Positions 18,601 through 34,674 of a stretch of DNA of 64,000 bases are shown here, piece by piece. A model generated the notes under the pieces. It was not told the origin of the DNA. It ran no database searches and was given only the letters and a program-made list of their open reading frames with translations. The DNA comes from Candidatus Tepidifontimicrobium thermophilum (lineage in GTDB: Bacteria > Sysuimicrobiota > Sysuimicrobiia > Sysuimicrobiales > Sysuimicrobiaceae), in assembly GCA_031459915.1 (NCBI GenBank), contig JAVKHO010000003.1, forward strand, positions 96,001 to 160,000, written 5' to 3'. Every line of letters begins with the position of its first letter. Positions within the stretch are counted from its first letter, which is position 1. The translations under genes were made by a program, and so were the position numbers.

Positions 18601-18948
18601 GTCGGCCAGAGCCCGCAGCCGTTCGCCCACCACCTCGGGGGCCGGGGGCAGGGGGTCGTGGGGCAAGACTTCCAACGGCGGCAAGTAGCGCAGGCGGTCC
18701 CGCAGGCCAGGCGCCAAGGCGGACAGGTCCTCTTGCAACGACTCCCCGGCGTCCCGGCCGGGCACAAGGATCAGGGCTGGCCGCGGAGGCCCCCACACCA
18801 GAAGATCCGCCAGGAGAAGGCTCTTCGCCCCCTGCGCGGGCACAAGGGCCCACGCGCGGGCGGGCGGCCGGGACATGACGTCCCGCAGCTCGTGCAGCCG
18901 CGGCCAGTTGCGGGTCAGCTGCAGCAGGCCTTCGAACGACAACGCCAC
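15637..18948 (-). CDS. mfd: transcription-repair coupling factor
   Basis: CarD-like RID domain (GDLVVHVHHGVGRY), GDVGYGKTEVA, DEEQRFG, QLYQLRGRVGR, DLEIRGAGNLLG, TRCF C-terminal domain. Confidence 0.98.
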   Translation of the reverse strand: MALSFEGLLQLTRNWPRLHELRDVMSRPPARAWALVPAQGAKSLLLADLLVWGPPRPALILVPGRDAGESLQEDLSALAPGLRDRLRYLPPLEVLPHDPLPPAPEVVGERLRALADLASGLPVVILAPVATACRPVPAASALGSVRKQVRVGEEVPLEAVVRYLQEGGYDRVDLVQTRGTYAVRGGIVDVFPPDADRPWRLEWFGDLVDSIRRFDPETQRSEAKADCAELPLASEPEGNALLLDLFPPQTLVVLDEPAELEAQARSVYRAARETEGQHQAKPAYVPWEAVLAAADRRCLMAVSAYHGAPEGWRGFEVPVQPVEAFAGQTAFLADQVRRWLGSGQRVVLVSAQAGRLSEILADHGIPVDPCPGLDSPPAAGLAVSVPGGLSRGFRVPDLQLVVVTDAEVLGWKRRRRRLRVAKDGTAVRSWSELEPGDLVVHVHHGVGRYRGVVRKAVAGAERDYLHLEYAEGDALFVPTDQIHLVQRYVGVEGHTPRIHRLGTADWEREKRRVREATEQVARELLELYARRQAARGFAFSPDTPWQRELEASFEFEETPDQWKAIEDVKRDMESPKPMDRLVAGDVGYGKTEVAVRAAFKAVMDGKQVAVLVPTTLLAQQHWQVFRTRFAAFPVRVEMVSRFRSPREVRRVLEDLAAGTVDVVIGTHRLLQKDVRFKDLGLVIIDEEQRFGVLHKERLKQLRASVDVLTLTATPIPRTLHMSLVGLRDMSLMETPPDARQPIRTTVAEWSEALVQEAIRRELARGGQVYVVHNRVNTIERAARRVQALVPEARVAVAHGQMPESQLERVMLDFVAGRYDVLVCTTIVEIGLDIPRVNTILVEEAHTLGLAQLYQLRGRVGRADQQAYAYLLYPRGAQLGEEARARLEALREFVALGSGIRLAMRDLEIRGAGNLLGPEQHGHMAAVGFDLYTRLLDEAIRRLRGEFVEEAPDPVVELRVSAYLPESYVPQERERLAAYRRLATARSPQEVVAVEEELRDRYGPLPEPARNLVQVAALREMARGLGISALVRESRGVLVRARDRVPTREIRWLALEYRGRVQGVPEGLLVCVDTTDDARVLHLLRDVLDSWAALRHRRPQPVTA

Positions 18949-19471: not shown

Positions 19472-20911
19472 TCAGATGTCGAAGTACAGGTAGAACTCGT
19501 ACGGGTGGGGGCGGATGTTCACCTCGTGGAGCTCCCGCTCCCGCTTGTACGCGATCCACGTGTCCAGAAGGTCCCGGGTGAACACGTCGCCCTCCAACAG
19601 GAACTCGCAGTCCGCCTCCAGCGCGTCCAGCACCGCGGCCAGCGAACCGGGCACGCTCTTCACCTTCGCCGCTTCCTCGGGCGGGAGCTCGTACGTGTTC
19701 ACGTCCAGGGGGCCGAAGGGAGAGGGGTCCAGCTTGCGGCGGACGCCGTCCAGGCCGGCCATGAGCATGGCGGCAAAGGCCAGGTACGGGTTGCAGCTGG
19801 GGTCCGGCGGCCGGAACTCGATGCGCTTGCTGGCTGCCGACTCCGCGCCGAAGTGGTACATGGGGATCCGGACGCAGGCGCTGCGGTTCCGCTTGCTGAA
19901 CGCCACGTTCACGGGTGCCTCGTAGTGGGGGACCAGCCGCTTGTAGGAGTTGGTGGTGGGGCTGGTGAGGCCCAGCAGGGCGTCCACGTGGGTGAGCAGG
20001 CCCGCCACGTAGTGGAGGGCGAGGGGGCTCAGCTCCGCGTAGCCCCCCTCCCCGTAGAACAGGTTCCGTCCGTCCTTCCACAGGCTCTGGTGGGTGTGCA
20101 TGCCGTTGCCGTTGTCCCCGAATAGAGGTTTCGGCATGAAGGTCACCGTGCAGCCGTGGCGGCGGGCCACGTTGCGCATGACGTACTTGTACACCATCAC
20201 CTTGTCGGCCATGCGGACCAGGGTATCCCGCTCCATGTCCACCTCCGCCTGGCCGGCGGTGGCCACCTCGTGGTGGTGCATCTCCACGGGGATCCCGATC
20301 TGCTCCAGGATCAGCGCCGCCTCGCTGCGGATGTCCTGGAAGGTGTCGCTGGGCGGCGCGGGGAAGTAACCCTCCTTGGGCCGGATCTTGTAGCCCAGGT
20401 TCTTGCCCTCCCCGTTGCCGCTGTTCCAGATCCCCTCCCGGCTGTCAATGCAGTACCCCGACCGGTGGGGGGTCACCTCGTACGTCACGTGGTCGAAGAT
20501 GAAGAACTCGATCTCCGGCCCCCAGAAGCTTGTGTCCGCGATCCCCGTCTCCTTCAGGTAGGCCTCCGCCTTACGGGCCACGTACCGGGGGTCGCGGGAG
20601 TACGGTGCCCGGGTCTCGGGGTCCACCACGTCGCAGATCATCACGAGGGTCGGAATTTCCAGGAAGGGGTCCACGAAGGCGGTGTTGGGGTCGGGCAGCA
20701 GGAGCATGTCGCTCTCCTGGATGGCCTGAAAGCCCCGGATGCTGCTCCCGTCGAACCCGATCCCCTTGGTGAAGGTGGACAGGTCCACCTGGGAGGCGGG
20801 GACCGAAGCGTGCTGCCACGTCCCCGGTAGGTCGGTGAACCGCAAGTCCACGATCTGGACCCCCTTCTCCTTGATCAGGGCCAGCACGTCGCTGGGCGTC
20901 CTGGGAACCAT
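19472..20911 (-). CDS. glnA: glutamine synthetase type I (GSI-beta-like; adenylylation-site Tyr retained)
   Basis: FDGSSIRGF, HHHEVATAGQ, FMPKPLFGDNGNGMH, RIEFRPPDPSCNPYL, NTYELP; RBS GGAGGT before ATG 20911. Confidence 0.98.
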   Translation of the reverse strand: MVPRTPSDVLALIKEKGVQIVDLRFTDLPGTWQHASVPASQVDLSTFTKGIGFDGSSIRGFQAIQESDMLLLPDPNTAFVDPFLEIPTLVMICDVVDPETRAPYSRDPRYVARKAEAYLKETGIADTSFWGPEIEFFIFDHVTYEVTPHRSGYCIDSREGIWNSGNGEGKNLGYKIRPKEGYFPAPPSDTFQDIRSEAALILEQIGIPVEMHHHEVATAGQAEVDMERDTLVRMADKVMVYKYVMRNVARRHGCTVTFMPKPLFGDNGNGMHTHQSLWKDGRNLFYGEGGYAELSPLALHYVAGLLTHVDALLGLTSPTTNSYKRLVPHYEAPVNVAFSKRNRSACVRIPMYHFGAESAASKRIEFRPPDPSCNPYLAFAAMLMAGLDGVRRKLDPSPFGPLDVNTYELPPEEAAKVKSVPGSLAAVLDALEADCEFLLEGDVFTRDLLDTWIAYKRERELHEVNIRPHPYEFYLYFDI

Positions 20912-20962
20912 CTGTTGCACCTCCCGTCCGGTCTTTTTTGCGCGAACGCCGAAGACTCGCGG

Positions 20963-21065
20963 AAACACAAAGACGCCCCGGCGCCGCAAGGGCGCGGGGC
21001 GTCGTGGCCCACGCAGTGCTATTCAGCTCGGCGTGTTTATACCACAGACGTGGGTGGGCCGTCAA
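20963..21065 (-). promoter_or_regulatory. glnA promoter and attenuator leader (ANTAR-like hairpin overlapping terminator)
   Basis: TTGACG-N18-TATAAA; GGGC-CACGAC-GCCC (20997-21010) overlaps the 5' arm of GACGCCCCG...CGGGGCGTC-TTTGTGTTT. Confidence 0.75.
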
Positions 21066-21169
21066 ACCTCCTCTTCGGCCCGCCCCGCCCGCCGCAGGAG
21101 ACGGCTGGGCAGCACCACCCACGCGCAGAACAACAGCACGAACGAACCGAGGGCGATCCACGCTTCCAC
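21062..21169 (-). CDS. small single-TM protein (35 aa) downstream of amtB
   Basis: RBS AAGGAGGT, GTG start, MEAWIALGSFVLLFCAWVVLPSRLLRRAGRAEEEV*; below the ORF-track length cutoff. Confidence 0.7.
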   Translation of the reverse strand: MEAWIALGSFVLLFCAWVVLPSRLLRRAGRAEEEV

Positions 21170-21212
21170 AGGTCTGACCTCCTTTCCGTCGGGCGTTTTC
21201 CGGTCTTCTGGG

Positions 21213-22583
21213 CTACGACCCGGCGCCCGCCAGCGCGGGCTCCAGGGCGTAGGCGGGCGTGCCGTGCTCGGGAATGTCCAGGCCCTGCAGCTCCTCCTCC
21301 CGGGAGGCCCGCAGGCCGATGGTGGCCCGGATGAGGGCGAACATCACGTAGCCGGTGGCGAGGGTCCAGAGGGTGACCGCCCCCATGCTGATGAGCTGGG
21401 CCACCAGCTGGCCGGTCTCGCCCACGATGAGGCCCCGCACGTTCCCGTACGTCCCGTCCGCGAAGATCCCCACGGCCAGCAGCCCCCACAGACCCCCTGC
21501 GGCGTGCACCGACACCGCGCCCACGGGGTCGTCCACCTTCAGGACCCGCTCCACGAAGCCCAGACTCCACATCATCACCAGTGCGGCCACCCCGCCGATG
21601 ACCACGGCGGCCCAGGTTGGGACGTACGCGCACGGCGCGGTGATGCCCACGAGGCCGGCGAGAGCCCCGTTGCAGGCCATGGCGATGTCGGCTTTGCCGG
21701 TGCGGGCCAGGGTCGCGTACAGGGCCACTACGCCACCCGCGGCACCCGCGAGGAAGGTGTTCACCGCCACCACGGAGATCCGCAGGTCGGTGGCGGCCAG
21801 GGTGCTGCCCGGGTTGAACCCGAACCAGCCGAAGAACAGGATGAAGGTCCCCGTGACCACGTAGGCCATGTTGTGACCCGGGATGGGGTTCGGCGTGCCG
21901 TCGGGATTGAACTTCCCGATGCGCGGGCCCACCATGGCGGCACCCACCAACCCCAGAAGCCCGCCCACCGCGTGGACCACGCCCGAGCCCGCGAAGTCCC
22001 GCGCCCCGACGCCGAAGGGGAGGTTCGCCAGCCACCCGCCGCCCCACACCCAATGGCCGTAGATGGGGTAAATCAGGGCGCTCACCAGGAAGCTGTAGGC
22101 CAGGTAGGCTTGGATCTTGGTGCGCTCCGCCATGGCCCCGGCCACGATGGTGGCCGCGGTGGCCGCGAACACCATCTGGAAGAACCAGTACAGGGCCGTG
22201 GTGACGTCGTAGGCGGCGCCGCTCAGGAAGAAGCCGGACAGACCGACCCACGGCGTCCCGTGCTCCAGGCCGCTGGCGAGCTTGCTGCCGCCGAACATGA
22301 GGGCAAACCCGAACGCCCAGTAGCTGAGGGCCGCGATACTGAAGTCCATGTAGCTCTTCGTCAGGTAATTGACGGTGTTCTTGGACCGGATCAACCCGGC
22401 GCCTAGCAGGGCGAAGCCCGCCTGCATGAAGAACACCAGGAAGGCCGCTACGAGGGTCCAGGTGAAGTTCACCGCGGAGTTGGGGTCCGCCTTGAAGGTG
22501 GTGGTCCCCGTGGGGTCTGCAGCCCACGCGGCGGGGGTACAGGCCAGCAGCAGGGCTGCGGCCAGGGTCCAGGCTCTCCGCAT
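21213..22583 (-). CDS. amtB: ammonium transporter
   Basis: Signal peptide; FMQAGFALL, DFAGSGVVH, WFGFNPGS, DDPVGAVSVH (twin His conserved). Confidence 0.97.
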   Translation of the reverse strand: MRRAWTLAAALLLACTPAAWAADPTGTTTFKADPNSAVNFTWTLVAAFLVFFMQAGFALLGAGLIRSKNTVNYLTKSYMDFSIAALSYWAFGFALMFGGSKLASGLEHGTPWVGLSGFFLSGAAYDVTTALYWFFQMVFAATAATIVAGAMAERTKIQAYLAYSFLVSALIYPIYGHWVWGGGWLANLPFGVGARDFAGSGVVHAVGGLLGLVGAAMVGPRIGKFNPDGTPNPIPGHNMAYVVTGTFILFFGWFGFNPGSTLAATDLRISVVAVNTFLAGAAGGVVALYATLARTGKADIAMACNGALAGLVGITAPCAYVPTWAAVVIGGVAALVMMWSLGFVERVLKVDDPVGAVSVHAAGGLWGLLAVGIFADGTYGNVRGLIVGETGQLVAQLISMGAVTLWTLATGYVMFALIRATIGLRASREEELQGLDIPEHGTPAYALEPALAGAGS

Positions 22584-22595
22584 CTGCTCCTCCCG

Positions 22596-22721
22596 AAAAG
22601 GCGAAGGACGCCCCGGAGGGCGTCCCGGCCCGAAGTTGCCGAAAAGCGAAGGCCGGGACGTCCGAAGTTGCGGGCGTCCCGGCCCTGCTCACAGCATAGC
22701 AGCGCGCCCCAAGGATGTCAA
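22596..22721 (-). promoter_or_regulatory. amtB promoter and tandem attenuator leader (two ANTAR-like hairpins)
   Basis: TTGACA-N17-TATGCT; GGGC-CGGGAC-GCCC at 22672-22685 and 22618-22631, each overlapping a GC stem followed by TTCGC(C)TTTTC. Confidence 0.75.
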
Positions 22722-23305
22722 CGGGTTTTCGGTTTCGGTTTGGGCGGCTGGGAGACGATCTCCTCGTGCACCAGCACCGCTTGCGCCACCTCCCGCATCG
22801 GGCGCCTCAGGTTCCGGCTGCGGCGCTGCAGCAGCCGGTACGCCTCCTCCTCACCGAGGCCCAGGCGCCGCATGAGCACGCCCTTCGCCCGCTCCACCAG
22901 CTTGCGGGTCTCCAGAGCCTCGCGGGCTTCCTGCAGGTCACGCCACCGGGCCCACGCCAGCTCCACCGCGGCCAGCAGCTCCGCCCCCACCACAGGCTTC
23001 ACCACGTAGCCGAAGCCGCCTGCCGCCGCAGCCGCTTCCAGGAGCCCGCGGTCGCCGAAGGCGGTCAGGAACACCACCGGCCGAGGAGACGTCTCCCGAA
23101 GGCGGCGGGCTACCTCGATGCCGTCGGGAGGGGGCATGCGTACGTCCAGAACCACCAGGTCGGGGTCGTGGGAGCGGACCAGCTCCAGGCACTCCTCCCC
23201 GTTGGCCGCTTCCCCCACTACCCGGTAGCCTGCGTCCTCCAGGATGGCCCGCACGCCCATGCGGACCACGGCCTCGTCTTCCGCGATCACGATCCGCTTG
23301 CTCAC
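22718..23305 (-). CDS. ANTAR-domain response regulator (REC + ANTAR; PdtaR/EutV-like), copy 1
   Basis: IAEDE, LDVRMP (phospho-Asp), YVVKP; ANTAR RKLVERAKGVLM...EEEAYRLLQRRS...PMREVAQA. Confidence 0.93.
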   Translation of the reverse strand: MSKRIVIAEDEAVVRMGVRAILEDAGYRVVGEAANGEECLELVRSHDPDLVVLDVRMPPPDGIEVARRLRETSPRPVVFLTAFGDRGLLEAAAAAGGFGYVVKPVVGAELLAAVELAWARWRDLQEAREALETRKLVERAKGVLMRRLGLGEEEAYRLLQRRSRNLRRPMREVAQAVLVHEEIVSQPPKPKPKTR

Positions 23306-23328
23306 CGCATCCCTCCTCTTGCGGGTTC

Positions 23329-23454
23329 AAAACAAAAGCGCCCCCGGCTTCGGGGGCGTCGTGGCCTCCGGAAAACGGCGACGCCGGCGGGTACCGCCGG
23401 CGTCGTGGCCTGGGATTTCGAAGTCAGGCTAGCGGCCCGTGGGGGCCCTGTCAA
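23329..23454 (-). promoter_or_regulatory. ANTAR regulator promoter and tandem attenuator leader
   Basis: TTGACA-N17-TAGCCT; AGGC-CACGAC-GCC at 23399-23411 and 23355-23367, overlapping GACGCCGGCGG/CCGCCGGCGTC and CGCCCCCG/CGGGGGCG-CTTTTGTTTT. Confidence 0.78.
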
Positions 23455-26400
23455 CGGGCGGGGCGCGCTGCAGAGGCCTCGCGTGCAGCGACCTGAGCGG
23501 GGACCTCCGCCGCGGAGCGGGGCCGCACGGCCCGGAACTGACCCATGGCCCGTAGCCACCGACGCAGGAGGGACTGGGCGCGGTGGCTGCCCGTGGCCTC
23601 GTGGTAGCGGACCAGCAGCGCCCGCAGCTCTTCCGCTTCCTCCTCCGCGAGCGGCCCGGTCTGGACGGAGTCGGTGTTGACCTGGCGGTCCAGCACCCCA
23701 GCCTCGTCCAGCACGTACGCGCGGCCGCCCGTCATGCCCGCTCCGAAGTTCCGGCCCACGGGGCCCAGCACCACTACCACGCCACCCGTCATGTACTCGC
23801 AGCAGTGGTCGCCGGCACCCTCCACCACCGCCACGGCACCGCTGTTGCGCACTGCGAAGCGCTCGCCGGCCCGGCCCGCGGCGAAGAACACCCCACCGGT
23901 AGCGCCGTACAGCACCGTGTTCCCCACGATGACGTGCTTCCAGCTCTCCCGGTGTAAAGGCGGCGGGGGAACGATGACGATCTCGCCCCCGGACATCCCC
24001 TTGCCCGCGTAATCATTGGCCTCACCCACCAACCGGAGGTGCATCCCCGGTACGCAGAACGCCCCGAAGCTCTGGCCCGCAGCGCCCTCGAAGGTGAGCC
24101 GCAGGGTACCCTCGGGAAGCCCGTCCTCGCCCCAGCGCTGGGCGATCTCGCCCGCCAGGGTGGCGCCCACGGTGCGGTCTCGGTTGGTGATGGGATGGTG
24201 TCCCTCTGCGGGCACCCCGTGCTCCACCGTTTGCCGGTACTGCTCTACCAGCAGCCGGTTCAGCCTGCCCTCCACGGACAGGGGGTCCGCAAAGCTCCCG
24301 CGGGTCTCGCCCTCCGCCGGTTGCAGGATCTCCGACAGGTCCAGCCGCTCCGCCCGGTACAGGGTGACGTCGTCCCGCACCCGGAGCAGGTCCACCCGGC
24401 CCACGATCTCGTCCAGGGACCTGGCCCCTAACTGCGCCAGTTGGCGCCGGACGTCCTCCGCGAGGGCACGGAAGTACGCTTCCACCCGCTCGGGCGTGCC
24501 CGGGAACTTGCCGCGCAGGTCTTCCCGCTGGGTGGCGATCCCCACGGGGCAGGTGTTGCTGTGGCACTGCCGGGCCATCACGCAGCCCAGGGCGACCAGG
24601 GCCGCGGTGCCGAACCCGAACTCGTCCGCGCCCAGCAAGGCCGCCAGCACCACGTCGCGCCCGACCTTGAACCCTCCGTCCACCCGCAGGCGCACGCGGC
24701 CGCGCAGCCCGTTGGCGCTCAGGGCCCGGCGAGCCTCGCTCAGCCCCACCTCCCAGGGCAGGCCCGCGTTCTTGATGGAGTCCAGAGGGGAAGCCCCCGT
24801 GCCGCCCTCGTGGCCGCTGATCTGCACCACGTCCGCGAACCCCTTCGCCACACCGGAGGCGATGGTGCCCACCCCTGTAGTGGCCACCAGCTTCACGGCC
24901 ACGTGCGCGGTGGGGTGCACCTGCTTGAGGTCGTAGATGAGCTGGGCCAGGTCCTCGATGCTGTAGATGTCATGGTGAGGCGGCGGGGAGATGAGGGTCG
25001 TGCCGGGCTGCGTCTTCCGCAGCCGGGCGATCTCCTCGGTGACCTTGTGTCCCAGCAGCTGCCCGCCCTCGCCGGGCTTGCTGCCCTGCGCCATTTTGAT
25101 CTCCAGCTCCACCGCCGACCGCAGGTACCCCGCGGTCACTCCGAACCGGCCCGAGGCGACCTGCTTGATGGTGGTGTTCGGCCAGTCCCCGTTGGGCCGG
25201 ACCTTCCGACGGGCGGGATCCTCACCGCCCTCGCCGCTGTTGCTGCGCATACCCAGTCGGTTGGCGGCGATGGCCAGGGTCTCGTGGGCTTCCCGGGAGA
25301 GGGCCCCGTGGGACATGGCGGAGATCACGAACCGGCGGAGGATGTTCTCCACCGGCTCCACCTCCTCCAGGGGCACCGGAGGTCCGGCGGGGCGGATCTC
25401 GAGGAGGTCCCGGAGGGCCTGTGGCGGTCTGGAGCCCACTAGCTGGGCCAGCTTCGGGTACTCCTCAGCGCCGTTGAGGCTCACGCGGTGGATGGCCTTC
25501 ACCACGTCGGGCTCGAACCCGTGCTGCTCGCCCCCGTGCCGGTACCGGTAGAAACCGACGTCGGGGACGGTGGCGGGCTCGCCGTCGAGGGCCCGTCGGT
25601 AGGCGGCGTGGCGCTCCAGGACGTCCCGTGCGAGAGCTGCCAGGTCTACGCCCGGAGCGTGGTTGGGAGTCCCCGGGAAGTAGCGCTCCACCAGCGCCCG
25701 GTCCAGTCCGATGGTCTCGAAGATCTGAGCCCCGCAGTACGCCTGCAGGGGCGCAATCCCCATCTTGGCCATGACCTTGAGCAGGCCGGCTTCCAGCGCT
25801 TTCTTGAGGTTCGCGGCCCCCTGGGGCGAAAGCTTCTGGGCGGTCTCCAGGGCGAGGTAGGGGTAGACCCCTTCGGCGCCGTAGCCTACCAGGCACGCCA
25901 CGTGGTGGACCTCCCGTGCCTCCCCGGTCTCCACCAGCAGGGCGGTGCTGAGCCGGAGGCCATGACGGATCAGGTGGTGGTGGACGGCTGCGGTGGCCAG
26001 CAGGGCAGGGATGGGCGCGCGCTCCCGGCTGAGGCCGCGGTCGGTAAGGACCAAGGCCGTACACCCCTCCCGCACGGCCTGCGCGGCCTGCTGGCACAGG
26101 CGGTCTAGCGCTTCCTGCAGGCCCTGCGGCCCCCGCGACGCCTCGAAGGTAGCGTCCAGGCGACAGGGCTTCAGGGGGACCTCCTCCAGCCAGTCCAGGT
26201 CCGGCAGCACCGGGCTTGCCAGCTCCACTAGGTCCGCGTGCTCGGGAGTTTCTTCCAGGAACGACCGGCGCGGCCCCAGACGCACTTCCAGGGACATGAC
26301 CACCCGCTCCCGCAGCGGGTCGATGGGGGGGTTGGTGACCTGGGCGAACCGCTGGCGGAAGAACTGGTACAACAGCCGGGGGTGGCTGGACAGGGCCGAA

Positions 26401-27857
26401 GGCGGCGTGTCGTCTCCCATGGAGCCCACCGCGTCCTTGCCGTCTGCGGCCATGGCCTGCAACACCCGCTGCAGGTCCTCCTTTGTGTAACCGAAGGCGA
26501 GGTGCAGAAGATGCAGGGACCCACCCGCGTGCGTCCGGGGCTGCGGCTTGGGGTCCACGCGCACCAGACGCTCCACCCACTTGGCGTACGGCTGGCGCGA
26601 GGCCAGTCGGTGGCGGATCTCGGGGTGGTGGAGAAGCTGGCGCGCCTCCAGGTCCACCACGACCATGTGGCCTGGCCCCAGCCGCCCGCGCTCAAGGACC
26701 CGCCCGGGAGCGATGGGCAGCACCCCTACCTCGGAGGCGGCCACCACCAGGCCGTCGCGGGTGACGGTGTAGCGGGCGGGACGCAGGCCGTTGCGATCCA
26801 GGGCCATGCCCACCGTGCGCCCGTCGAAGAAGGCCAGCGCCGCGGGGCCGTCCCACGGTTCGGCCAGGCACGCGTGGTACCGGTAGAATCCGCGCACGGA
26901 ACCATCGAGCTCCCACGCGCCCTCCCATGCCTCGGGGACCAGCATCCGCAGCGCGTGCGGCAGGTCCCGGCCACTGCGGCGCAGCAGCTCCAGCACGTTG
27001 TCCAGCATGGCGCTGTCGCTGCCGCCGTCCTGGATCACGGGGAGCAGCTCTTGCAACCGGTCCCCCCACAGGCTGCTGGACAGGGCGCCCTCCCGCGCCC
27101 GCATCCAGTTCACGTTGCCCAGCAGAGTGTTGATCTCGCCGTTGTGGGCCAGCAGGCGGAAGGGCTGCGCCAGCTGCCACGAGGGGTTGGTGTTGGTGCT
27201 GTAACGCTGGTGGAACACCGCGGCCCGGACCGCGAAGTCCGGGTCCTGCAGGTCCAGGTAGAAGCGCTCCAGCTGCGGAGCGGAAACCAGGGCCTTGTAC
27301 ACCACGGTGCGGGACGAAAGCGAGGGGACGTACAGGCCGAGGGGCGCTGCGCGTTTCTCTATGCGGCGCCGGACCAGGTACAGGTGCCGCTCCAGGGCCT
27401 CCGGGTCCAGATCAGGGGACGCGGTCAAAAGCGCCTGCTGGATGCGGGGCAGAGTGCGCAGCGCGTACTCGCCTAGGGCTTTGGGCTGCACGGGCGGGGT
27501 GCGCCATCCCAACAGGTGCAGGCCCGCGCGATGGAACTCCTCCTCGCACACCGCGCGGCAGGCCCGGTACACCTCCTCCTCCGCTGGGAAGAAGAAGACA
27601 CCGACCGCCAGAGGCCGCTCGTCGCCGCGGCAGCCCATCTCCCGCAGCACCCGGGCGAACAGCCCGTGCGGGATCTCCGTGAGCACCCCCGCCCCGTCCC
27701 CCGTGCGGCCGTCCGCAGCCTGCGCGCCCCGGTGGGCCAGGTTGCGGAGGGCTGTCAGCGCCGCCTGCAGCACGGCGTGGGACGGGGCCGCGTCCAGCCG
27801 CGCTACGAACCCCACCCCGCACGCGTCGCGCTCAGGAAACGCTGCCAGAGACGTCAC
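23451..27857 (-). CDS. gltB: glutamate synthase large subunit
   Basis: ERDACGVGF (N-terminal nucleophile Cys), HQRYSTNT, FAQVTNPPIDP, NSGEGGED, KQVASGRFGV, CVMARQCHSNTCPVG, GXGXG C-terminal repeats; GTG at 27857 after RBS GAGGAGG. Confidence 0.98.
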   Translation of the reverse strand: MTSLAAFPERDACGVGFVARLDAAPSHAVLQAALTALRNLAHRGAQAADGRTGDGAGVLTEIPHGLFARVLREMGCRGDERPLAVGVFFFPAEEEVYRACRAVCEEEFHRAGLHLLGWRTPPVQPKALGEYALRTLPRIQQALLTASPDLDPEALERHLYLVRRRIEKRAAPLGLYVPSLSSRTVVYKALVSAPQLERFYLDLQDPDFAVRAAVFHQRYSTNTNPSWQLAQPFRLLAHNGEINTLLGNVNWMRAREGALSSSLWGDRLQELLPVIQDGGSDSAMLDNVLELLRRSGRDLPHALRMLVPEAWEGAWELDGSVRGFYRYHACLAEPWDGPAALAFFDGRTVGMALDRNGLRPARYTVTRDGLVVAASEVGVLPIAPGRVLERGRLGPGHMVVVDLEARQLLHHPEIRHRLASRQPYAKWVERLVRVDPKPQPRTHAGGSLHLLHLAFGYTKEDLQRVLQAMAADGKDAVGSMGDDTPPSALSSHPRLLYQFFRQRFAQVTNPPIDPLRERVVMSLEVRLGPRRSFLEETPEHADLVELASPVLPDLDWLEEVPLKPCRLDATFEASRGPQGLQEALDRLCQQAAQAVREGCTALVLTDRGLSRERAPIPALLATAAVHHHLIRHGLRLSTALLVETGEAREVHHVACLVGYGAEGVYPYLALETAQKLSPQGAANLKKALEAGLLKVMAKMGIAPLQAYCGAQIFETIGLDRALVERYFPGTPNHAPGVDLAALARDVLERHAAYRRALDGEPATVPDVGFYRYRHGGEQHGFEPDVVKAIHRVSLNGAEEYPKLAQLVGSRPPQALRDLLEIRPAGPPVPLEEVEPVENILRRFVISAMSHGALSREAHETLAIAANRLGMRSNSGEGGEDPARRKVRPNGDWPNTTIKQVASGRFGVTAGYLRSAVELEIKMAQGSKPGEGGQLLGHKVTEEIARLRKTQPGTTLISPPPHHDIYSIEDLAQLIYDLKQVHPTAHVAVKLVATTGVGTIASGVAKGFADVVQISGHEGGTGASPLDSIKNAGLPWEVGLSEARRALSANGLRGRVRLRVDGGFKVGRDVVLAALLGADEFGFGTAALVALGCVMARQCHSNTCPVGIATQREDLRGKFPGTPERVEAYFRALAEDVRRQLAQLGARSLDEIVGRVDLLRVRDDVTLYRAERLDLSEILQPAEGETRGSFADPLSVEGRLNRLLVEQYRQTVEHGVPAEGHHPITNRDRTVGATLAGEIAQRWGEDGLPEGTLRLTFEGAAGQSFGAFCVPGMHLRLVGEANDYAGKGMSGGEIVIVPPPPLHRESWKHVIVGNTVLYGATGGVFFAAGRAGERFAVRNSGAVAVVEGAGDHCCEYMTGGVVVVLGPVGRNFGAGMTGGRAYVLDEAGVLDRQVNTDSVQTGPLAEEEAEELRALLVRYHEATGSHRAQSLLRRWLRAMGQFRAVRPRSAAEVPAQVAAREASAARPAR

Positions 27858-27895
27858 GGTCCCGGCTCCCTCCTCAGGAAATCGGAAGATAGCCC

Positions 27896-27941
27896 AAAGC
27901 CCGAGGGGGCCTCGGCTTGAGGAACCTCCCCCTCGGGCTTT
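27896..27941 (-). terminator. expression-platform hairpin of the ykkC-motif riboswitch
   Basis: AAAGCCCGAGGGGG ... CCCCCTCGGGCTTT; the 5' arm is the 3' end of the aptamer, so the two folds are mutually exclusive. Confidence 0.7.
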
Positions 27942-28034
27942 TGTCCCGACGGTGTAGCGAGTCCGGAAACCCGCCTGCGCCGCTCGGTCCAGGCCGGCCG
28001 GGGTTGGGCCGCGGAACCCTAGGCGCACTTCCTC
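27919..28034 (-). ncRNA. ykkC-motif riboswitch, probably subtype 2a (ppGpp-sensing), upstream of gltB
   Basis: GAGGAAGTGCGCCTAGGGTTCCGC...CTGGACCGAGCGGCGCA...ACACCGTCGGGACAAAAGCCCGAGGGGGAGGTTCCTC: ykkC core motifs plus the closing GAGGAA/TTCCTC helix; promoter TTGACA-N17-TATCTA at 28059-28087. Confidence 0.85.
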
Positions 28035-28236
28035 ACGAGAGCGATTTCGTTTCTTTGTTAGATAGCAGTGCAGGGTGGAGCTGTCAACGGGCTCGGCCGG
28101 GAAAAGGAGCAAGTTCTTCGGAAATTCTGTGACAGACAGCACGGGAAGGTCGCAATATTCGAACGTTCGTGAGCGCCACGTTCGGAGAAGTGCTGGGGGT
28201 CACTTCCCCCTGGTACAATGGTGGCAAAACCGGTAA

Positions 28237-28414
28237 GACCTTCGGGGCAGGGTGAGGGGGCCGCACGGTCCCCGATTCCCGACCGGCGGTAGGCGCCGGC
28301 CAGGGCCGGCGCGAGCCCGCGACCCGCGCACGGTCTGCGGCGCGGTGGACTCCGGTGGCGGCTCCTGGGGAGCCCAGTCCGGGGCCGACGGTACAGTCCG
28401 GATGGGAGGAGGTC
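28237..28414 (+). ncRNA. FMN riboswitch (RFN element)
   Basis: CTTCGGGGCAGGGTG...ATTCCCGACCGGCGGT...AGCCCGCGA...CCGGTG...CCGGGGCCGACGGTACAGTCCGGATGGGAGGAG, directly upstream of the rib operon; extended -10 TGGTACAAT at 28211-28219. Confidence 0.95.
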
Positions 28415-28560
28415 GCCAGACTACGCCGGGCGTGCCGGCGTCTCGCCGTGCCACAGGAGCGGTGGGAGGCCGTGGAAGCGCGTCCGGCGGCGGGTCCCGG
28501 ACGCAGGAGCCGGTGCCGGCTGACTTTCCCTTGGCGCCCGGAGGTCTTACCTCCGGGCGT

Positions 28561-29673
28561 ATGCGTTTACAGGACGTCTTCTGGATGCGGCGGGCGCTGC
28601 AGCTCGCTTGCCTGGGCCGGGGCCGCACCAGCCCCAACCCCACGGTGGGCGCGGTGGTGGTGCGGGACGGGGTGGAGGTGGGCTGCGGCTACCACCGCGC
28701 GGCGGGAGGGCCCCACGCGGAGGCGGAAGCTCTCGCGCGGGCGGGCGAACTGGCGCGCGGAGCCACCCTGTACGTGAACCTGGAACCCTGCGACCACCAC
28801 GGCCGGACCCCCCCGTGCACGGAAGCCGTCCTCGCAGCGGGTGTGCGCCGCTTGGTGGTGGCGATGGAAGATCCAGACCCGAGGGTACGGGGACGAGGAA
28901 TCCGGCGGCTGCGTGAGGCCGGGGTGGAGGTCGCGGTGGGCGTGCTCGAGGAGGAAGCCCGGCGCCTGAACGCCGCGTACGTAAAGCACCGGACCACCGG
29001 GCTCCCGTGGGTGACCTGCAAGTGGGCCATGTCCGTGGACGGCCGCATCGCCACCCGCACAGGCGCCTCACGGTGGATCACGGGGCCGCAGGCCCGGGAA
29101 TACGCACACCGCCTGCGGGACTACCACGACGCCGTCCTCGTGGGCTGCGGGACCGCGCTGCGCGACGACCCCGCCCTCACGTGCCGCCTCCCCGGCGGCC
29201 GTGACCCCCTGCGGGTCGTGGTGGACAGCGGGGCGCACCTGCCGCCGGAGGCCAGGATGCTGCGGGAGGGGAGTTCGCCGGTGGTGGTGGCGACCACCCC
29301 TCGCGCGGACCCCACCCGGGCCGAGCGGCTGAGGCGTGCAGGCGCGGAGGTGTGGGTATGCGAGCCGGATGCAGGCGGCGTGTCCCTGCGCGACCTGTTG
29401 CGCAGGCTCGCCCACCGTGGGGTGCTGAGCGTGCTCGCAGAGGGCGGCAGTGCCTTGCACGCCTCGCTGTTGCAGGCGGGCCTCGTGGACCGGCTGGTAG
29501 CCTTCGTGGCCCCGGTGGTGGTGGGAGGACGAGGAGCACCCGGGCCTGTCTCCGGGCAGGGCGTGTCGGAGCTCGTGCACGCCCTCCGGCTGGAGGAGGT
29601 GACGGTGCGCCGGTTCGGCCCGGACCTGTGCGTGGAAGGCGATGTGCGCGGCCGTCTAGCGGTGGAGGGTTGA
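28561..29673 (+). CDS. ribD: bifunctional riboflavin deaminase/reductase
   Basis: GRTSPNPTVGAVVV, HAE, LEPCDHHGRTPPC, KWAMSVDGRIA, SRWITG, EGG. Confidence 0.96.
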   Translation: MRLQDVFWMRRALQLACLGRGRTSPNPTVGAVVVRDGVEVGCGYHRAAGGPHAEAEALARAGELARGATLYVNLEPCDHHGRTPPCTEAVLAAGVRRLVVAMEDPDPRVRGRGIRRLREAGVEVAVGVLEEEARRLNAAYVKHRTTGLPWVTCKWAMSVDGRIATRTGASRWITGPQAREYAHRLRDYHDAVLVGCGTALRDDPALTCRLPGGRDPLRVVVDSGAHLPPEARMLREGSSPVVVATTPRADPTRAERLRRAGAEVWVCEPDAGGVSLRDLLRRLAHRGVLSVLAEGGSALHASLLQAGLVDRLVAFVAPVVVGGRGAPGPVSGQGVSELVHALRLEEVTVRRFGPDLCVEGDVRGRLAVEG

Positions 29674-30254
29674 GTGTTCACAGGGATCGTGGAGGAAGTC
29701 GGAAGGGTAGCGTGGCGACGGGGGAACCGCCTTCGGCTGGAAGCCCGGGGAGTGCTGCGCGGGCTGCGGCCGGGCGACAGCGTGGCGGTGGACGGGGTGT
29801 GCCTGACCGCGGCGTACGTGGACCGGTCCGGCTTTGAGGCCGACCTGGGCCCCGCGACCCTGAAGCGCACCACCCTGGGCCAGCGGAAAGCGGGGGATCC
29901 GGTGAACCTGGAACGTCCCGTGCGCTTGCCGCAGCGGCTGGGAGGACACCTGGTCCAGGGGCACGTGGACGCGGTGGGGCGGGTGAAGTGGGTACGGCCG
30001 GACGGGCAGGCGCGGTGGATGGAGGTGGCTGCACCGACCAGCGTCCTGCGGTACCTCGTGGAGCGAGGGTCCGTTGCGGTGGACGGTGTGAGCCTCACCG
30101 TGGCGGCCGTGACGTCCCGCAGCTTCCGCGTCTGCCTGATCCCGCAGACCCTGCAGCGCACCACCCTGGGCCTGCGCGGCCCGGGCGACCCGGTGAACCT
30201 GGAGGTGGACGTGCTGGCGAAATACGTGGAGCGGCTGCTGGGGGGGATCCGGCG

Positions 30255-30258
<4 letters not shown>
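29674..30258 (+). CDS. ribE: riboflavin synthase (alpha chain)
   Basis: MFTGIVEE, GVCLT, GGHLVQGHVD, VNLEVDVLAKYV. Confidence 0.96.
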
Positions 30259-31470
<1,212 letters not shown>

Positions 31471-31490
<20 letters not shown>

Positions 31491-31953
31491 GGGATCCCTG
31501 GACGGCCGTGGACTGCGGGTGGGCGTGGTGGCCAGCCGGTTCAACGAAGCCACCACGCGGTTGCTCGTGGAGGGAGCCCTGGACGGGCTCCGCCGGTGCG
31601 GGGTCGAGGAGGTGGACGTGGCTTGGGTCCCCGGGGCGTTCGAGATCCCTCTGGTGGCCGCCCGGCTAGCACGCTGCGGCCGCTACGACGCGGTGGTGTG
31701 CGTGGGCGCGGTGGTGCGCGGGCAGACTCCCCACTTCGAGTACGTAGCCGGCCACAGCGCGGCCGGCATCGCCCGGGCGGCGCTGGATAGCGGCGTTCCC
31801 GTGCTGTACGGGGTGGTGACCGCGGACGACCCGCAGCAGGCAGCCGAGCGGGCGGGCGGGAAGGCCGGGAACCGGGGCCGCGACGCAGCCCTGGCCGCGG
31901 TGGAGATGGCCACCCTCCTGCGCCAGCTCCGCGCCGAGGTGGAGGCGGGCTAG
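31471..31953 (+). CDS. ribH: 6,7-dimethyl-8-ribityllumazine synthase
   Basis: VVASRFN, WVPGAFEIP, GAVVRGQTPHFEYV, ERAGGKAGNRG. Confidence 0.97.
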
Positions 31954-32519
31954 CGGGAGGTCTCGCCGAGGATCTCCCGAGCCACCTCCCGCATGGGGCG
32001 GCGGGTGCGGCGCGCCTCCAGCTGGATGCGTCGGAAGGCTTCCTCTTCCGACAATCCCTCCCGCTGCATCAACAGCCCCTTGGCGCGCTCTACCAGCTTG
32101 CGGGTCTGCAGCTGCTCTTCTAGCTCCCCGATACGCTCGTCCTTGCGCCGCAGGTCCGCAAACCGCGCCAGCGCCACCTCGATGGCGGGCACGAGGTCCT
32201 CCTCCTTGATGGGCTTGACGAGGTAGGCGAGGACCCCGGCCTGCTGGGCCTGCTTGACCAGCTCCCGCTCGCTGTAGGCGGTCAGCAGCACCACCGGGGT
32301 GGGCCGCACCTCCTGGATCCGGGCTGCAGCCGCCAGCCCGTCCATTTCCGGCATCTTCACGTCCAGGAACACCAGGTCCGGCCGCAGGCGTTGCACCAGT
32401 TCCACCGCGCGCTTGCCGTCCGAGGCCTCGCCCACCACCCGGTAGCCGCGGTCCTCCAGCATGGCGCGCAGCCCCATGCGGATCAGGGCCTCGTCGTCCG
32501 CGATGACGATGCGCCTCAC
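31950..32519 (-). CDS. ANTAR-domain response regulator, copy 2 (cognate of the adjacent kinase)
   Basis: IADDE, LDVKMP, LTAYS, YLVKP; RKLVERAKGLLM...SEEEAFRRIQ...PMREVA; GTG start overlaps the kinase stop. Confidence 0.93.
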   Translation of the reverse strand: MRRIVIADDEALIRMGLRAMLEDRGYRVVGEASDGKRAVELVQRLRPDLVFLDVKMPEMDGLAAAARIQEVRPTPVVLLTAYSERELVKQAQQAGVLAYLVKPIKEEDLVPAIEVALARFADLRRKDERIGELEEQLQTRKLVERAKGLLMQREGLSEEEAFRRIQLEARRTRRPMREVAREILGETSR

Positions 32520-34159
32520 GCCCGAAGGACCTCCTTGGGGATGCGCACCGCGAAGCGGGCCCCCACGCCCCGCTGGGCCACCAGCTGTCCCCGCAGGTCT
32601 TCCTGCACCAGGGTACGGGCGATGCGCAGCCCCAGGTCGGAGGAGCGGGCGGGGTCGAACCCCTCGGGCAGACCCGCCCCGTCGTCCTCCACCTCCAGCA
32701 CCACGTGGGTGGGAGAGTCCAGCAGCCGCACCCACAGGTGGCCGCGGGTGCGGTCCCGAAACGCGTGCTCCAAGGCGTTCTGCACAAGCTCGGTGGCCAC
32801 CAGGGCGGCAGAAGTGGCCGGCTGGGAGGGGAAGTAGACGTCATCCCCCTGCACGGAGACCTCCAGCTGCAGGTCCGGCCGCCGCATGTTGGCGACCACC
32901 GCGTGGGTGAGGCGGTCCAGCACCTCCCGTAGGTTGACGGTCCGGAACCCCTCCAGGGAAAGGATCTCGTGCACCGCGGCGATCCCCAGTACCCGGTTGA
33001 TGGTCTCCGTGAGCACCTCGCGGCCGGAGGGCTCCCGGCCGTCCGCCAGCTGCAGGCGCAGGAGCATGGCGATGGTCTGCAGGTTGTTCTTGACCCGGTG
33101 GTGCATCTCCCGCACCACCGCGGACCTCATCACCAGGTTGGCGTTCTCGATGGCCAGGGCCGTCTGAGTGGCGAGGGTGGTGAGGAGGTTGACGTCGGCG
33201 GCGGAGAAGGCCGCGGGTCGTGCACGGTAGCAGTTCAGTACCCCGATCACCCGGTCCCGCACCCGCAGGGGCACGGACACCATCGACCGGAGGCCCTGCC
33301 GGCGCGCGAACTCGGGGTCGGAGAAGCGCGGCTCGGCCAGCAGGTCCACCACCACCTCCATCTCCCCGGTCGCGGCCACGCGGCCTGCGATCCCGGACCC
33401 CAGGGGGATGGGTGCCCGTTCCGTGTACGCCTCGCCTGCAGGGTGGGCCGCCGCAGGCCGCAGGACCCCCGCGGAGTCGTCCACCAGCAGCAGGGAGCAC
33501 AGCCGGGCCTCCAGCATGCGCGCGGCCATCTCCACGATCACCTGCAGCACCTGCTCCAGGTACAGGGGTGAGGTGAGGGTCTGGCTGAGTTCCGCCAGGG
33601 TGGACAGCTCCCGGATCTGGCGGCGCATGTGGTCGTGCAGGGTAGCCTTCTCGATCGCCCCGCCCGCCAGGTCCGCGATCATGCTCAGCAGCTCCACCTC
33701 GTCGTCGGTGAACTCGTGGGTGTTGCGGGTCTGCACGTTCATAGCCCCGAGGACCCGCCCGCCCACCACCAGGGGCACCGCCAGCAGGGACCGGAACCGG
33801 AGCTCCTCCGTCTCCGGCAGCAGCACGAAGCGGGGGTCGCTGGGGGCGTTGCTGCTCCACGCGGGCTGCTCGTGCAGGGCAGCCCAGCCCGTGAGGCCTT
33901 CGCCCAACCGCAGGCGGGCCCGGCCCACCGCTTCCGGGGCCAGCCCGGTGGTCGCCCGCAGGACCAGGTAGTCGCCCTGCGGGTCGAGCAGGTACAGGGA
34001 GCAGGAATCCATGCCCATGACCTCCGCGGTCTTGCGGGTGATGGTGGTCAGGGTGGTGTCCAGGTCGTGGGCCTGGCTGATGGTACGGCTAATCTCCCGC
34101 AGAGCGGAGATCTCCGCCGACTTGCGCTGGAGCAGGTGCTCGAGCTGCGCCCGGGTCAT
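32516..34159 (-). CDS. cytoplasmic sensor histidine kinase, 2x GAF + HisKA_2 + HATPase (PdtaS/EutW-like core)
   Basis: EMHHRVKNNLQ H-box, ELVQNALEHAF, VEDDGAG, LGLRI; two GAF domains; no TM segment. Confidence 0.92.
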   Translation of the reverse strand: MTRAQLEHLLQRKSAEISALREISRTISQAHDLDTTLTTITRKTAEVMGMDSCSLYLLDPQGDYLVLRATTGLAPEAVGRARLRLGEGLTGWAALHEQPAWSSNAPSDPRFVLLPETEELRFRSLLAVPLVVGGRVLGAMNVQTRNTHEFTDDEVELLSMIADLAGGAIEKATLHDHMRRQIRELSTLAELSQTLTSPLYLEQVLQVIVEMAARMLEARLCSLLLVDDSAGVLRPAAAHPAGEAYTERAPIPLGSGIAGRVAATGEMEVVVDLLAEPRFSDPEFARRQGLRSMVSVPLRVRDRVIGVLNCYRARPAAFSAADVNLLTTLATQTALAIENANLVMRSAVVREMHHRVKNNLQTIAMLLRLQLADGREPSGREVLTETINRVLGIAAVHEILSLEGFRTVNLREVLDRLTHAVVANMRRPDLQLEVSVQGDDVYFPSQPATSAALVATELVQNALEHAFRDRTRGHLWVRLLDSPTHVVLEVEDDGAGLPEGFDPARSSDLGLRIARTLVQEDLRGQLVAQRGVGARFAVRIPKEVLRA

Positions 34160-34191: not shown

Positions 34192-34674
34192 CTAGACGCG
34201 GCCCCCCAGCCGCTTGCGCAGCGCCTGGGAAAGCGCCGCACGCAGCTCGGACTCGGGGGCGTTCCGCACGGAGCGCAGCTGCCGGAACGCTTCCTCCACC
34301 GCTTCGTCCACCACCGAGTCCAGCTCCGTGGGGGACCCCCAGTACGCCGGGGGGCGCTCCGCCGCCCAGCGGTCCAGGGCCGCGCTTAAGCTGGACACCT
34401 CTGCCGCGAGCTTCCTCAACTGCTCTGCCAAGGCCGTCTCAGGACTGCGGCCGGTCACCAGCCAGGCCACGTCGGCCCCGCAGGCCTGGGCGAAGGCCGC
34501 CAGCTGTTCCACGCTCGGCTGTCGCTGTCCGCTCTCCCAGCTGACCACGGTACCGGGGCGAACCCCTACGCGCGCCGCCAGCTCCTTCAGGGTGAGGTTG
34601 GCCGCTTTCCGGGCGCTCCTCAGCCGGGCGCCCAAAGCACGCCGGGACTCCGGGGATCCCCTCGTAAGTGCCAA
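34192..34674 (-). CDS. XRE-family helix-turn-helix transcriptional regulator
   Basis: LGARLRSARKAANLTLKELAARVGV..GTVVSWESGQRQP...VAWLVTG. Confidence 0.85.
   Translation of the reverse strand: MALTRGSPESRRALGARLRSARKAANLTLKELAARVGVRPGTVVSWESGQRQPSVEQLAAFAQACGADVAWLVTGRSPETALAEQLRKLAAEVSSLSAALDRWAAERPPAYWGSPTELDSVVDEAVEEAFRQLRSVRNAPESELRAALSQALRKRLGGRV

Follow-up and report, generated by a model that had tools for sequence, protein, structure and literature searches.

How are ammonium uptake and assimilation controlled at a locus where the genes for a glutamine synthetase (glnA) and an ammonium transporter (amtB) lie close to two genes for REC-ANTAR response regulators and a gene for a sensor kinase? 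The locus is part of a 64,000-nucleotide (nt) stretch of the uncultured hot-spring bacterium Candidatus Tepidifontimicrobium thermophilum ("the window"; contig JAVKHO010000003.1, here C23, positions 96001–160000), whose genome has 2.6 Mb, 71% GC and a completeness of 96%. The phylum, Ca. Sysuimicrobiota, is described as lacking a pure culture so far (PMC11604079). Our results suggest that the kinase and the ANTAR proteins run an antitermination regulon on the leaders of nitrogen genes, and we put the probability of this reading at about 70%. As far as comparative sequence evidence goes, the underlying observation is real and well supported. The type of switch is already known; what sets most copies apart is the missing second hairpin, which had been thought obligatory.

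Five copies of the motif GGC-CNNGAC-GCC are present at the locus, two before the gene of the first regulator (ANTAR1), two before amtB and one before glnA (Table 1). The pattern drawn from them, GGCCRSGACGCC, has six matches in the window as compared to 0.58 expected, and none of 100 shuffles reaches six; the sixth match (18748–18759) falls within an mfd-like open reading frame (ORF) and has no terminator. In all five units a stable stem is predicted (fold z −2.2 to −4.4) whose base is the 3′ half of the motif, and a U-rich run comes after it. More specifically, each unit has a predicted hairpin of at least 3 bp with an invariant small stem, a hexaloop with G at position 4 (G4), and overlap with the 5′ arm of a putative intrinsic terminator. 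Such a shared motif on terminator-like stems before these three genes had been claimed in the original prediction and is borne out, as are the gene identities and coordinates (Pfam) and the coupling of the second regulator, ANTAR2, to a kinase with two GAF domains and a HisKA_2 domain, the ANTAR2 start overlapping the kinase stop codon. Outside the window a sixth unit heads a second amtB-glnA operon, as the reading predicts: among 53 genome matches to GGCCNNGACGCC, the only one beyond the window with promoter and terminator (C7:38116) precedes amtB2, a membrane protein of unassigned function, a flotillin and a type I glnA2, all behind this one unit (L031 4157–9644). Loop position 1 is C (C1) in all six units of this genome, in place of the A1 typical of targets of EutV, the ethanolamine regulator of Enterococcus faecalis; the relatives' sequences were selected with C1, so the C1 count in relatives is not independent. 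No Rfam family matches the ANTAR motif.

Each of the three leaders was also said to have its own sigma70-like promoter. Pairs of −35 and −10 elements are indeed found upstream of all three, and a strict promoter scan passes only that of amtB (1 found, 0.7 expected). For this reason the leader promoters rest on their conserved position in relatives; the same spacing is seen again across 45 first units, drawn from this genome and its relatives. The amtB unit 1 motif begins 8 nt past the −10 hexamer, and the −35 element of glnA overlaps the stop codon of a small ORF behind amtB. Some transcript data are at hand for ANTAR1 leader unit 1, the first terminator-like element downstream of gltB, the gene for the large subunit of glutamate synthase. 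From 23450 to 23410 the RNA depth of two assembled metatranscriptomes of one study drops from about 61, to 5 in one and to 0 in the other, and 11 raw reads of another study, in a single orientation, drop likewise at 23410–23450. This would fit gltB transcripts ending at the unit; the indication is weak because contigs cannot show transcript ends and the depth is very low. Metatranscriptomes X4, X5 and X3 gave 9, 0 and 1 records, too few for a test.

Presence and absence across genomes tie the motif to the proteins. Our phylum set consists of 94 genomes placed in Ca. Sysuimicrobiota by their nearest named relatives; those of the window's kinase are Bacterium HR32 (94%), Ca. Thermofontivivens and Ca. 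Fervidifonticultor (62–64%), and Thermofontivivens is filed in the phylum by the tree tool. ANTAR proteins occur in 81 of these genomes, the kinase (as a single copy) in 77 and the motif in 71. The motif is found in 71 of the 81 ANTAR-bearing genomes and in none of the 13 without ANTAR, and the same 13 are without the kinase, which strengthens the proposed kinase-ANTAR-motif link. They comprise eight genomes of genus g7, four of genus g29 and one other; g7 is also without amtB and this type of glnA (three genomes checked). By hand count, 32 motif-bearing genomes have only one ANTAR; its gene adjoins that of the kinase in 29 of them, and ANTAR2 is therefore taken as the core partner. Among named records, a REC-ANTAR gene is present in the fetched flank of 65 of 80 kinase loci. 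Five Chloroflexota records have the kinase-ANTAR pair, then the motif, then glnA or a glutamate-synthase-like gene.

The two regulators have the domains and the receiver residues expected of REC-ANTAR antiterminators. ANTAR1 and ANTAR2 both score above cut-off with PF00072 and PF03861; receiver residues D10, D54 and K103 are invariant and T81 nearly so. By our own mapping onto EutV, the equivalents of R142, K143, K149 and Y164 are kept in ANTAR1 (the aromatic is Phe in ANTAR2), and K147 and M172 are replaced by Arg in both. The closest solved relative of ANTAR1 is PDB 1s8n (1e-42), with 6wsh at 1e-34. ANTAR1 proteins form a separate clade (99/97) that is represented in four families, and the window's copy keeps the phospho-acceptor Asp and has a coiled coil shorter by one heptad. 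Receiver helix alpha-1 is the kinase-contact surface, and ANTAR1 has 10 of its 14 residues in common with ANTAR2 and 5 with ANTAR3, a further support for the link to the kinase. The third REC-ANTAR of the genome, ANTAR3, is paired with a separate HisKA_2 kinase on C31 (L032 6610–8513), which is GAF-less and has an unannotated N-terminus; the count of two ANTARs in the original prediction thus holds for the window and not for the genome. This pair is found mainly in the window's family; it is unlikely to be the motif regulator, given its different alpha-1 and its absence from most motif-bearing genomes. At the position of EutV Met172, most Sysuimicrobiota regulators and the Chloroflexota ones examined have Arg and the five Armatimonadota ones have Met, and one Armatimonadota locus (L129) has an A-first loop. 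A pairing of loop C1 or A1 with Arg or Met at this position is suggestive only.

A separate observation concerns motif-controlled REC-ANTAR paralogues of families f2 and f4 (L230–L234, L237). In them the RK..E.AKG helix residues are missing, as is the aromatic for stacking on G4, but an ANTAR2-type alpha-1 is kept; some are divergent to an amino-acid permease. Such proteins could possibly serve as phosphate sinks or exert dominant-negative feedback.

Conservation of the leaders was followed in 41 genomes. The motif core lies within 300 nt upstream of amtB in 24 of 28 loci, of glnA in 20 of 30 and of REC-ANTAR genes in 16 of 30. Two of the latter 16 are inside genes. All the rest belong to the ANTAR1 type, where 14 of 15 loci have the core; the kinase-linked type has none. 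The terminator helix, aligned from 50 sequences, is 91.1% paired, and 9 of its 13 pairs show two-sided changes, 102 in total. Its covariation is 0.435, a value reached by none of 500 shuffles and compared to at most 0.177 in slid controls; these figures are inflated by relatedness and by hand selection of the sequences. Loop positions 5 and 6 vary jointly with their terminator partners.

A covariance model (R1) was trained on 50 sequences from amtB, glnA and ANTAR leaders. On its own genome R1 gives seven matches at E≤1: five true units, a coding match and one at E 0.5. The coding match (C12:82655) and its orthologues were rejected as motif units, being inside the sufD gene. Among 71 non-training matches, sorted by hand, 26 lead to glnA, amtB, gltB or nirA operons, many of these being near copies of leaders already known; gltB (four times: L209, L217, L204, L205) and nirA (once) were unanticipated targets. 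ANTAR-type regulators account for 11, amino-acid permeases for 2, and a LysE gene, an ArsN1-family acetyltransferase gene and an amtB2-operon remnant for one each. It had been predicted that such a scan would concentrate upstream of nitrogen genes, and it does so in this genome and in relatives. R1 recovered the known site in 1 of 5 Chloroflexota genomes, where terminators are longer, with two further matches that are not the motif, and gave no full match in 5 Armatimonadota genomes.

An entirely different reading would take the motif as a DNA operator, or as a terminator flank recognised by some other protein, with the terminators as constitutive dampers and the ANTAR genes as co-inherited bystanders. 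GGC-N6-GCC is also an inverted repeat in DNA, its stem is invariant and it often lies just past the predicted start; moreover, the genome has two sigma54 genes, each near a gene for an enhancer-binding protein (C9 37610–40434; C1 29267–36203). We consider this reading highly improbable, since the motif is always sense-oriented and fused to the covarying 5′ arm of a terminator, even in second units 40–60 nt further on, the stem is identical to that of a tested RNA site of the Geobacter regulator GnfR, and the motif is absent where ANTAR and kinase are absent. Nor do the five leaders checked contain a sigma54, GlnR/TnrA or NtcA box pattern (by consensus patterns).

Do the leaders carry one hairpin or two? 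According to PMC3369931 and PMC8934654, EutV requires two hexaloops, P1 and P2, 5–12 nt apart, and the original prediction had the regulators bind paired hexaloops. The tandem motifs of a leader cannot be P1 and P2: they are 32 and 42 nt apart with a complete terminator between them, and for this reason each tandem is two single-hairpin units. P1 was sought separately, defined as 3 bp and a hexaloop with G4 within 15 nt upstream; duplicates and L020, L030 and the second match of L083 (in genes or without terminator) were left out. In family f4, seven of the nine glnA leaders have a P1, where 1.3 would be expected. Elsewhere its frequency is that of chance: 9 cases against 8.8 expected among 49 first or only units, and 4 against 3.6 among 17 second units. 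Upstream of the motif, position −1 alone is conserved. In 11 of 45 first units the gap from the predicted start to the motif is below 12 nt. The ANTAR1, amtB and amtB2 leaders of this genome are among these 11, so that the predicted starts would leave no room for P1 in three of its four leaders. Most leaders do not have the hexaloop 5–12 nt upstream, and the claim of paired hexaloops finds no support outside the f4 glnA leaders. The dual hairpin of the latter supports the ANTAR identity of the motif. The glnA leaders of family f1 have a loose NNNGAA word 12–16 nt upstream and may carry a degenerate P1. A second hexaloop downstream, in the terminator loop, was seen in one unit only and is not general.

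It is conceivable that the ANTAR proteins act by another route, through a cryptic upstream P1, or partly at the level of translation by occluding the Shine-Dalgarno site as in mycobacteria. The f4 and f1 leaders and other upstream hairpins in some leaders speak for the former; the predicted fold of the amtB leader, in which the U-runs are base-paired to the Shine-Dalgarno site, speaks for the latter. The transcription starts are themselves predictions. We find both quite unlikely in view of the chance-level P1 outside f4, the single conserved upstream position, the short space in the 11 first units counted above and the distance of many units from the start codon (more than 90 nt).

The EutV structure paper (PMC8934654) raises the question of what a second hairpin is for, given that the dimer binds a single one. 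Its proposal is that sites with one hexaloop function only in the absence of the time limit set by a transcribing polymerase. The lone hexaloop on a terminator, in some leaders with no RNA upstream of it, and the dual form of f4 on the same gene offer a natural comparison.

The closest known system is GnfK/GnfR of Geobacter sulfurreducens, in which phosphorylated GnfR binds CAGGCAANGGCGCC, a site overlapping the terminators of the nif and glnK-amtB operons (PMC2995071, Ueki and Lovley 2010). As proposed here, a kinase signals to a REC-ANTAR protein that recognises GGC-hexaloop-GCC with G4 on a terminator before nitrogen genes. GnfK is sensorless, however, and stands under a cascade of the NtrBC-like GnfL/GnfM and RpoN, whereas the kinase here has two GAF domains and the promoters look sigma70-like; the Geobacter loop starts with A in place of C. 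We read Fig. S4 of that paper as showing a G4-hexaloop hairpin some 12 nt ahead of the site in the nifH leader; most leaders here have no such hairpin, and nifH is therefore no clear precedent for a lone one. The EutW/EutV system has a REC-ANTAR protein (6wsh), the closing GC/GC pairs, G4, P2 on a terminator and several terminators per regulon in common with ours, and differs in its P1+P2 pair, A1, an essential Met172 and ethanolamine targets, as compared to one hairpin, C1, Arg and ammonium assimilation (PMC3369931; PMC8934654). PdtaS/PdtaR (Rv1626; 1s8n) resembles our pair in its cytoplasmic GAF-bearing kinase and REC-ANTAR partner; its sensor region is unlike the double GAF here, and actinobacterial dual stem-loops are mostly on ribosome-binding sites and rarely on terminators (10.1101/660928; PMC8164766). 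Predicted ANTAR regulons of Desulfotomaculum and Pelobacter likewise span several operons with several RNAs per transcription unit and include ammonium transporters, PII and glutamine/glutamate synthesis, but were found with a dual-hairpin A1/G4 model (PMC3369931). The proteins belong to the REC-ANTAR and HisKA_2 families, and the RNA lacks two defining features of the canonical dual-hexaloop target.

The novelty claimed for the circuit was overstated. Geobacter already offers a published case in which a kinase acts through a REC-ANTAR protein to antiterminate the leaders of glnK/amtB and nif (PMC2995071), and nitrogen genes are widely preceded by ANTAR RNAs (PMC3369931). The supplements of the latter paper list Geobacter and show none of the five Chloroflexota genera searched, and the words "ANTAR", "glutamine" and "ammonium" are absent from the accessible text of the Sysuimicrobiota paper (PMC11604079). 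Our literature search, with subscription journals mostly outside its reach, did not turn up an account of the circuit for this lineage or a paper combining ANTAR, Chloroflexi and glnA. Nor did it return the Clostridium glnA-nitR antitermination that has reportedly been described. To our knowledge, no kinase with a sensor has been placed above an ANTAR nitrogen regulon; GnfK is sensorless.

What does the kinase sense? It matches PF07568 (HisKA_2) and PF02518 (HATPase), its H-box sequence EMHHR.KN is conserved in 76 homologues, and its family has at least 5137 proteins at E≤1e-60, extending to Chloroflexota and Armatimonadota; some database relatives are automatically labelled PdtaS. GAF1 matches GAF structures of PtsP (EI-Ntr) at 5e-23 and 2e-21, as compared to 4.5e-8 or worse for GAFs of the phosphodiesterase/cyclase type. 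Its best NCBIfam model is PRK11061 (PtsP), and it aligns with E. coli PtsP without gaps at 27% identity; here it is fused to a HisKA_2 kinase and not to PTS enzyme I. GAF2 is generic and without PtsP kinship, and no PtsP-like GAF was found elsewhere in this genome. EI-Ntr is inhibited by glutamine via its GAF domain (PMC4848567). Searches of this 96%-complete genome for PII, GlnD, GlnE and NrpR found none of them, and together with the kinship of GAF1 to PtsP this makes direct metabolite sensing by the kinase plausible. The claimed independence from NtrBC is likely, with the reservation that two sigma54 genes are present and that a REC-type enhancer-binding protein exists. The latter is best matched by AtoC-like models and falls under the NtrC cut-off, and the other enhancer-binding protein sits in a flagellar cluster; neither was accepted as NtrC. 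Five MerR proteins are metal-sensor-like, HspR/CarH-like or without match, none of them GlnR/TnrA; the search did not extend to OmpR-type GlnR, NtcA/CRP and AmtR. Among the 41 genomes, 9 have a strong PII match, and 7 of these adjoin a divergent amtB.

The ANTAR antitermination may be real and the signal not nitrogen: the kinase could read redox state, metals, NO or a cyclic nucleotide, or be constitutive and controlled through its own expression, which has been proposed for GnfK. GAF folds bind many ligands, the identity to E. coli PtsP is low, and GAF2 is generic. Ligands of such a kind are reported for PdtaS, a gene of the XRE type precedes the kinase, and sensorless GnfK is transcriptionally controlled (PMC2995071). 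It is nevertheless unlikely, as GAF1 ranks with PtsP and NifA-type models far over other GAF families, the targets are nitrogen-scavenging genes, and no PII/GlnD chain was found that would supply the signal.

Several observations weigh against a nitrogen regulon of the kind proposed here. EutV needs two hairpins, and both A1 and Met172 are replaced (C1; Arg in ANTAR1 and ANTAR2). The 13 negative genomes amount to about three independent losses, and 10 ANTAR-bearing genomes have no motif match. The 3-bp hexaloop stem is invariant with no two-sided change; its pairing can only be inferred, because the sequences were also chosen for it. At 37 °C this stem has an energy of only −3.4 kcal/mol, and at 65 °C one of about 0. 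Several U-tracts are interrupted or weak, and the metatranscriptomes resolved no transcript starts or ends and no pile-ups. R1 misses amtB unit 1 and matches the sufD coding region at E 1.3e-4; 48 of its 119 matches at E≤0.01 are training rows, and of the 71 others 11 lead to a conserved ORF of about 50 amino acids (aa) and 9 to unknown genes or contig ends, 6 appear false and 3 were not retrieved. The top structural match of GAF1 is an uncharacterised Geobacter domain (5e-25), the GAF of Aquifex Nlh1 is also matched (9e-15), and the conservation of GAF1 (0.49) hardly exceeds that of GAF2 (0.44). Finally, seven relatives retain an amtB-PII pair.

If antitermination by the kinase and the ANTAR proteins is nevertheless the right reading, the circuit would work as follows, by analogy with EutV and GnfR. 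By default the terminator would sequester the 3′ half of the motif and transcription would stop. The GAF kinase, as putative sensor of nitrogen status, would phosphorylate its operon partner ANTAR2 and also ANTAR1, and a phosphorylated ANTAR dimer would bind the 3-bp hairpin via the loop G4 and let the polymerase pass. One hairpin would suffice in most leaders, the second being used only in the glnA leaders of one family. Tandem units would act as two terminators in series and give a tighter off state, and the same units would end read-through from gltB, ANTAR1 and amtB. Since the ANTAR1 gene lies behind two units itself, positive feedback would be expected. GAF1 may bind glutamine and/or 2-oxoglutarate like the GAF of EI-Ntr, with glutamine inhibiting the kinase in replacement of the PII/GlnD chain; such sensing is the most speculative part, and we give it about even odds.

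A wider version, which we put forward tentatively and hold to be possible rather than probable, would make this a phylum-wide master nitrogen regulon without PII, GlnD and NtrBC. An EI-Ntr-type GAF kinase would read glutamine/2-oxoglutarate; the target would be a lone C-first hexaloop, possibly 2 bases into the transcript and without a recruitment hairpin, with Met to Arg as the matching specificity switch; the RNA-binding paralogue would give positive feedback and the RNA-binding-dead paralogues negative feedback. If an EI-Ntr-like GAF kinase is indeed at work, it would explain nitrogen sensing in bacteria without PII and GlnD. Nitrogen-regulated genes of an uncultured phylum, two unannotated small proteins among them, can also be predicted from the motif.

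Table 1. Features of the kinase-ANTAR locus and its neighbourhood (positions in the window)
Feature	Position	Strand	Basis
glnA, type I glutamine synthetase, putative target	19472–20911	−	Pfam; TIGR00653 above cut-off
glnA leader unit: motif 20998–21009 overlapping terminator-like stem and U-run 20963–21003	20963–21009	−	pattern scan, fold
glnA predicted sigma70 promoter, 18-nt spacer	21036–21065	−	position kept in relatives; below strict scan
Conserved 35-aa ORF after amtB, one hydrophobic stretch	21062–21169	−	homologues after amtB in relatives; Pfam: no match
amtB, ammonium transporter, putative target	21213–22583	−	PF00909
amtB leader unit 2: motif 22619–22630, terminator-like stem 22596–22625, beside Shine-Dalgarno site	22596–22630	−	
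amtB leader unit 1: motif 22673–22684, fully sequestered in terminator-like stem	22642–22684	−	
amtB predicted sigma70 promoter, extended −10	22693–22721	−	strict scan
REC-ANTAR1, putatively motif-controlled paralogue	22718–23305	−	Pfam
ANTAR1 leader unit 2: motif 23355–23366, predicted terminator 23329–23358	23329–23366	−	
ANTAR1 leader unit 1: motif 23399–23410 and terminator-like stem	23371–23410	−	
ANTAR1 predicted sigma70 promoter	23426–23454	−	kept within genus
gltB, glutamate synthase large subunit	23451–27857	−	Pfam
ykkC/Guanidine-I-family aptamer 27927–28033 and overlapping terminator-like stem, before gltB	27896–28033	−	Rfam RF00442, fold
Riboflavin operon ribD, ribE, ribBA, ribH, between gltB and kinase operon	28252–31953	+	translation
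REC-ANTAR2, coupled to kinase	31950–32519	−	Pfam
Sensor kinase: GAF1 (EI-Ntr/PtsP-like), GAF2 (generic), HisKA_2, HATPase	32516–34159	−	Pfam, profile matches
HTH_3 (XRE) gene, 32 nt upstream of kinase	34192–34674	−	Pfam

The range given in the original prediction is right for glnA, amtB and the ANTAR genes; gltB, which lies inside it, has a ykkC-type riboswitch in place of the motif, which leads gltB in four matches among relatives. The gltB leader scores 63.3 bits with RF00442 (cut-off 63), filed by Rfam as Guanidine-I, and the riboswitch region (27896–28087, minus strand) includes a promoter and an overlapping terminator. By gene association the element is likely of the ppGpp subtype (ykkC subtype 2a), as 15 of 105 known examples precede glutamate synthase genes (PMC6003355). 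At the riboflavin operon no FMN riboswitch reaches the Rfam gathering score. The XRE gene is possibly co-transcribed with the kinase.

Some small genes next to the motif deserve mention. The ORF of about 50 aa (core DP..LWVG.W.PE) lies directly behind the motif in relatives (L180–L184, L186, L188, L193–L195, L197), has no Pfam match and was not found in this genome. Single relatives have the motif before a gene for an ArsN1-family acetyltransferase (L207 160–672), which presumably detoxifies an inhibitor of glutamine synthetase, before a LysE exporter gene (L190 162–788) and before an operon of nirA and a nitrite transporter (L210). The hydrophobic segment that forms the 35-aa ORF after amtB also begins a 401-aa ORF after amtB2 (L031 5569–6774), and one may speculate that the product of the 35-aa ORF partners Amt in this genome, where PII was not found.

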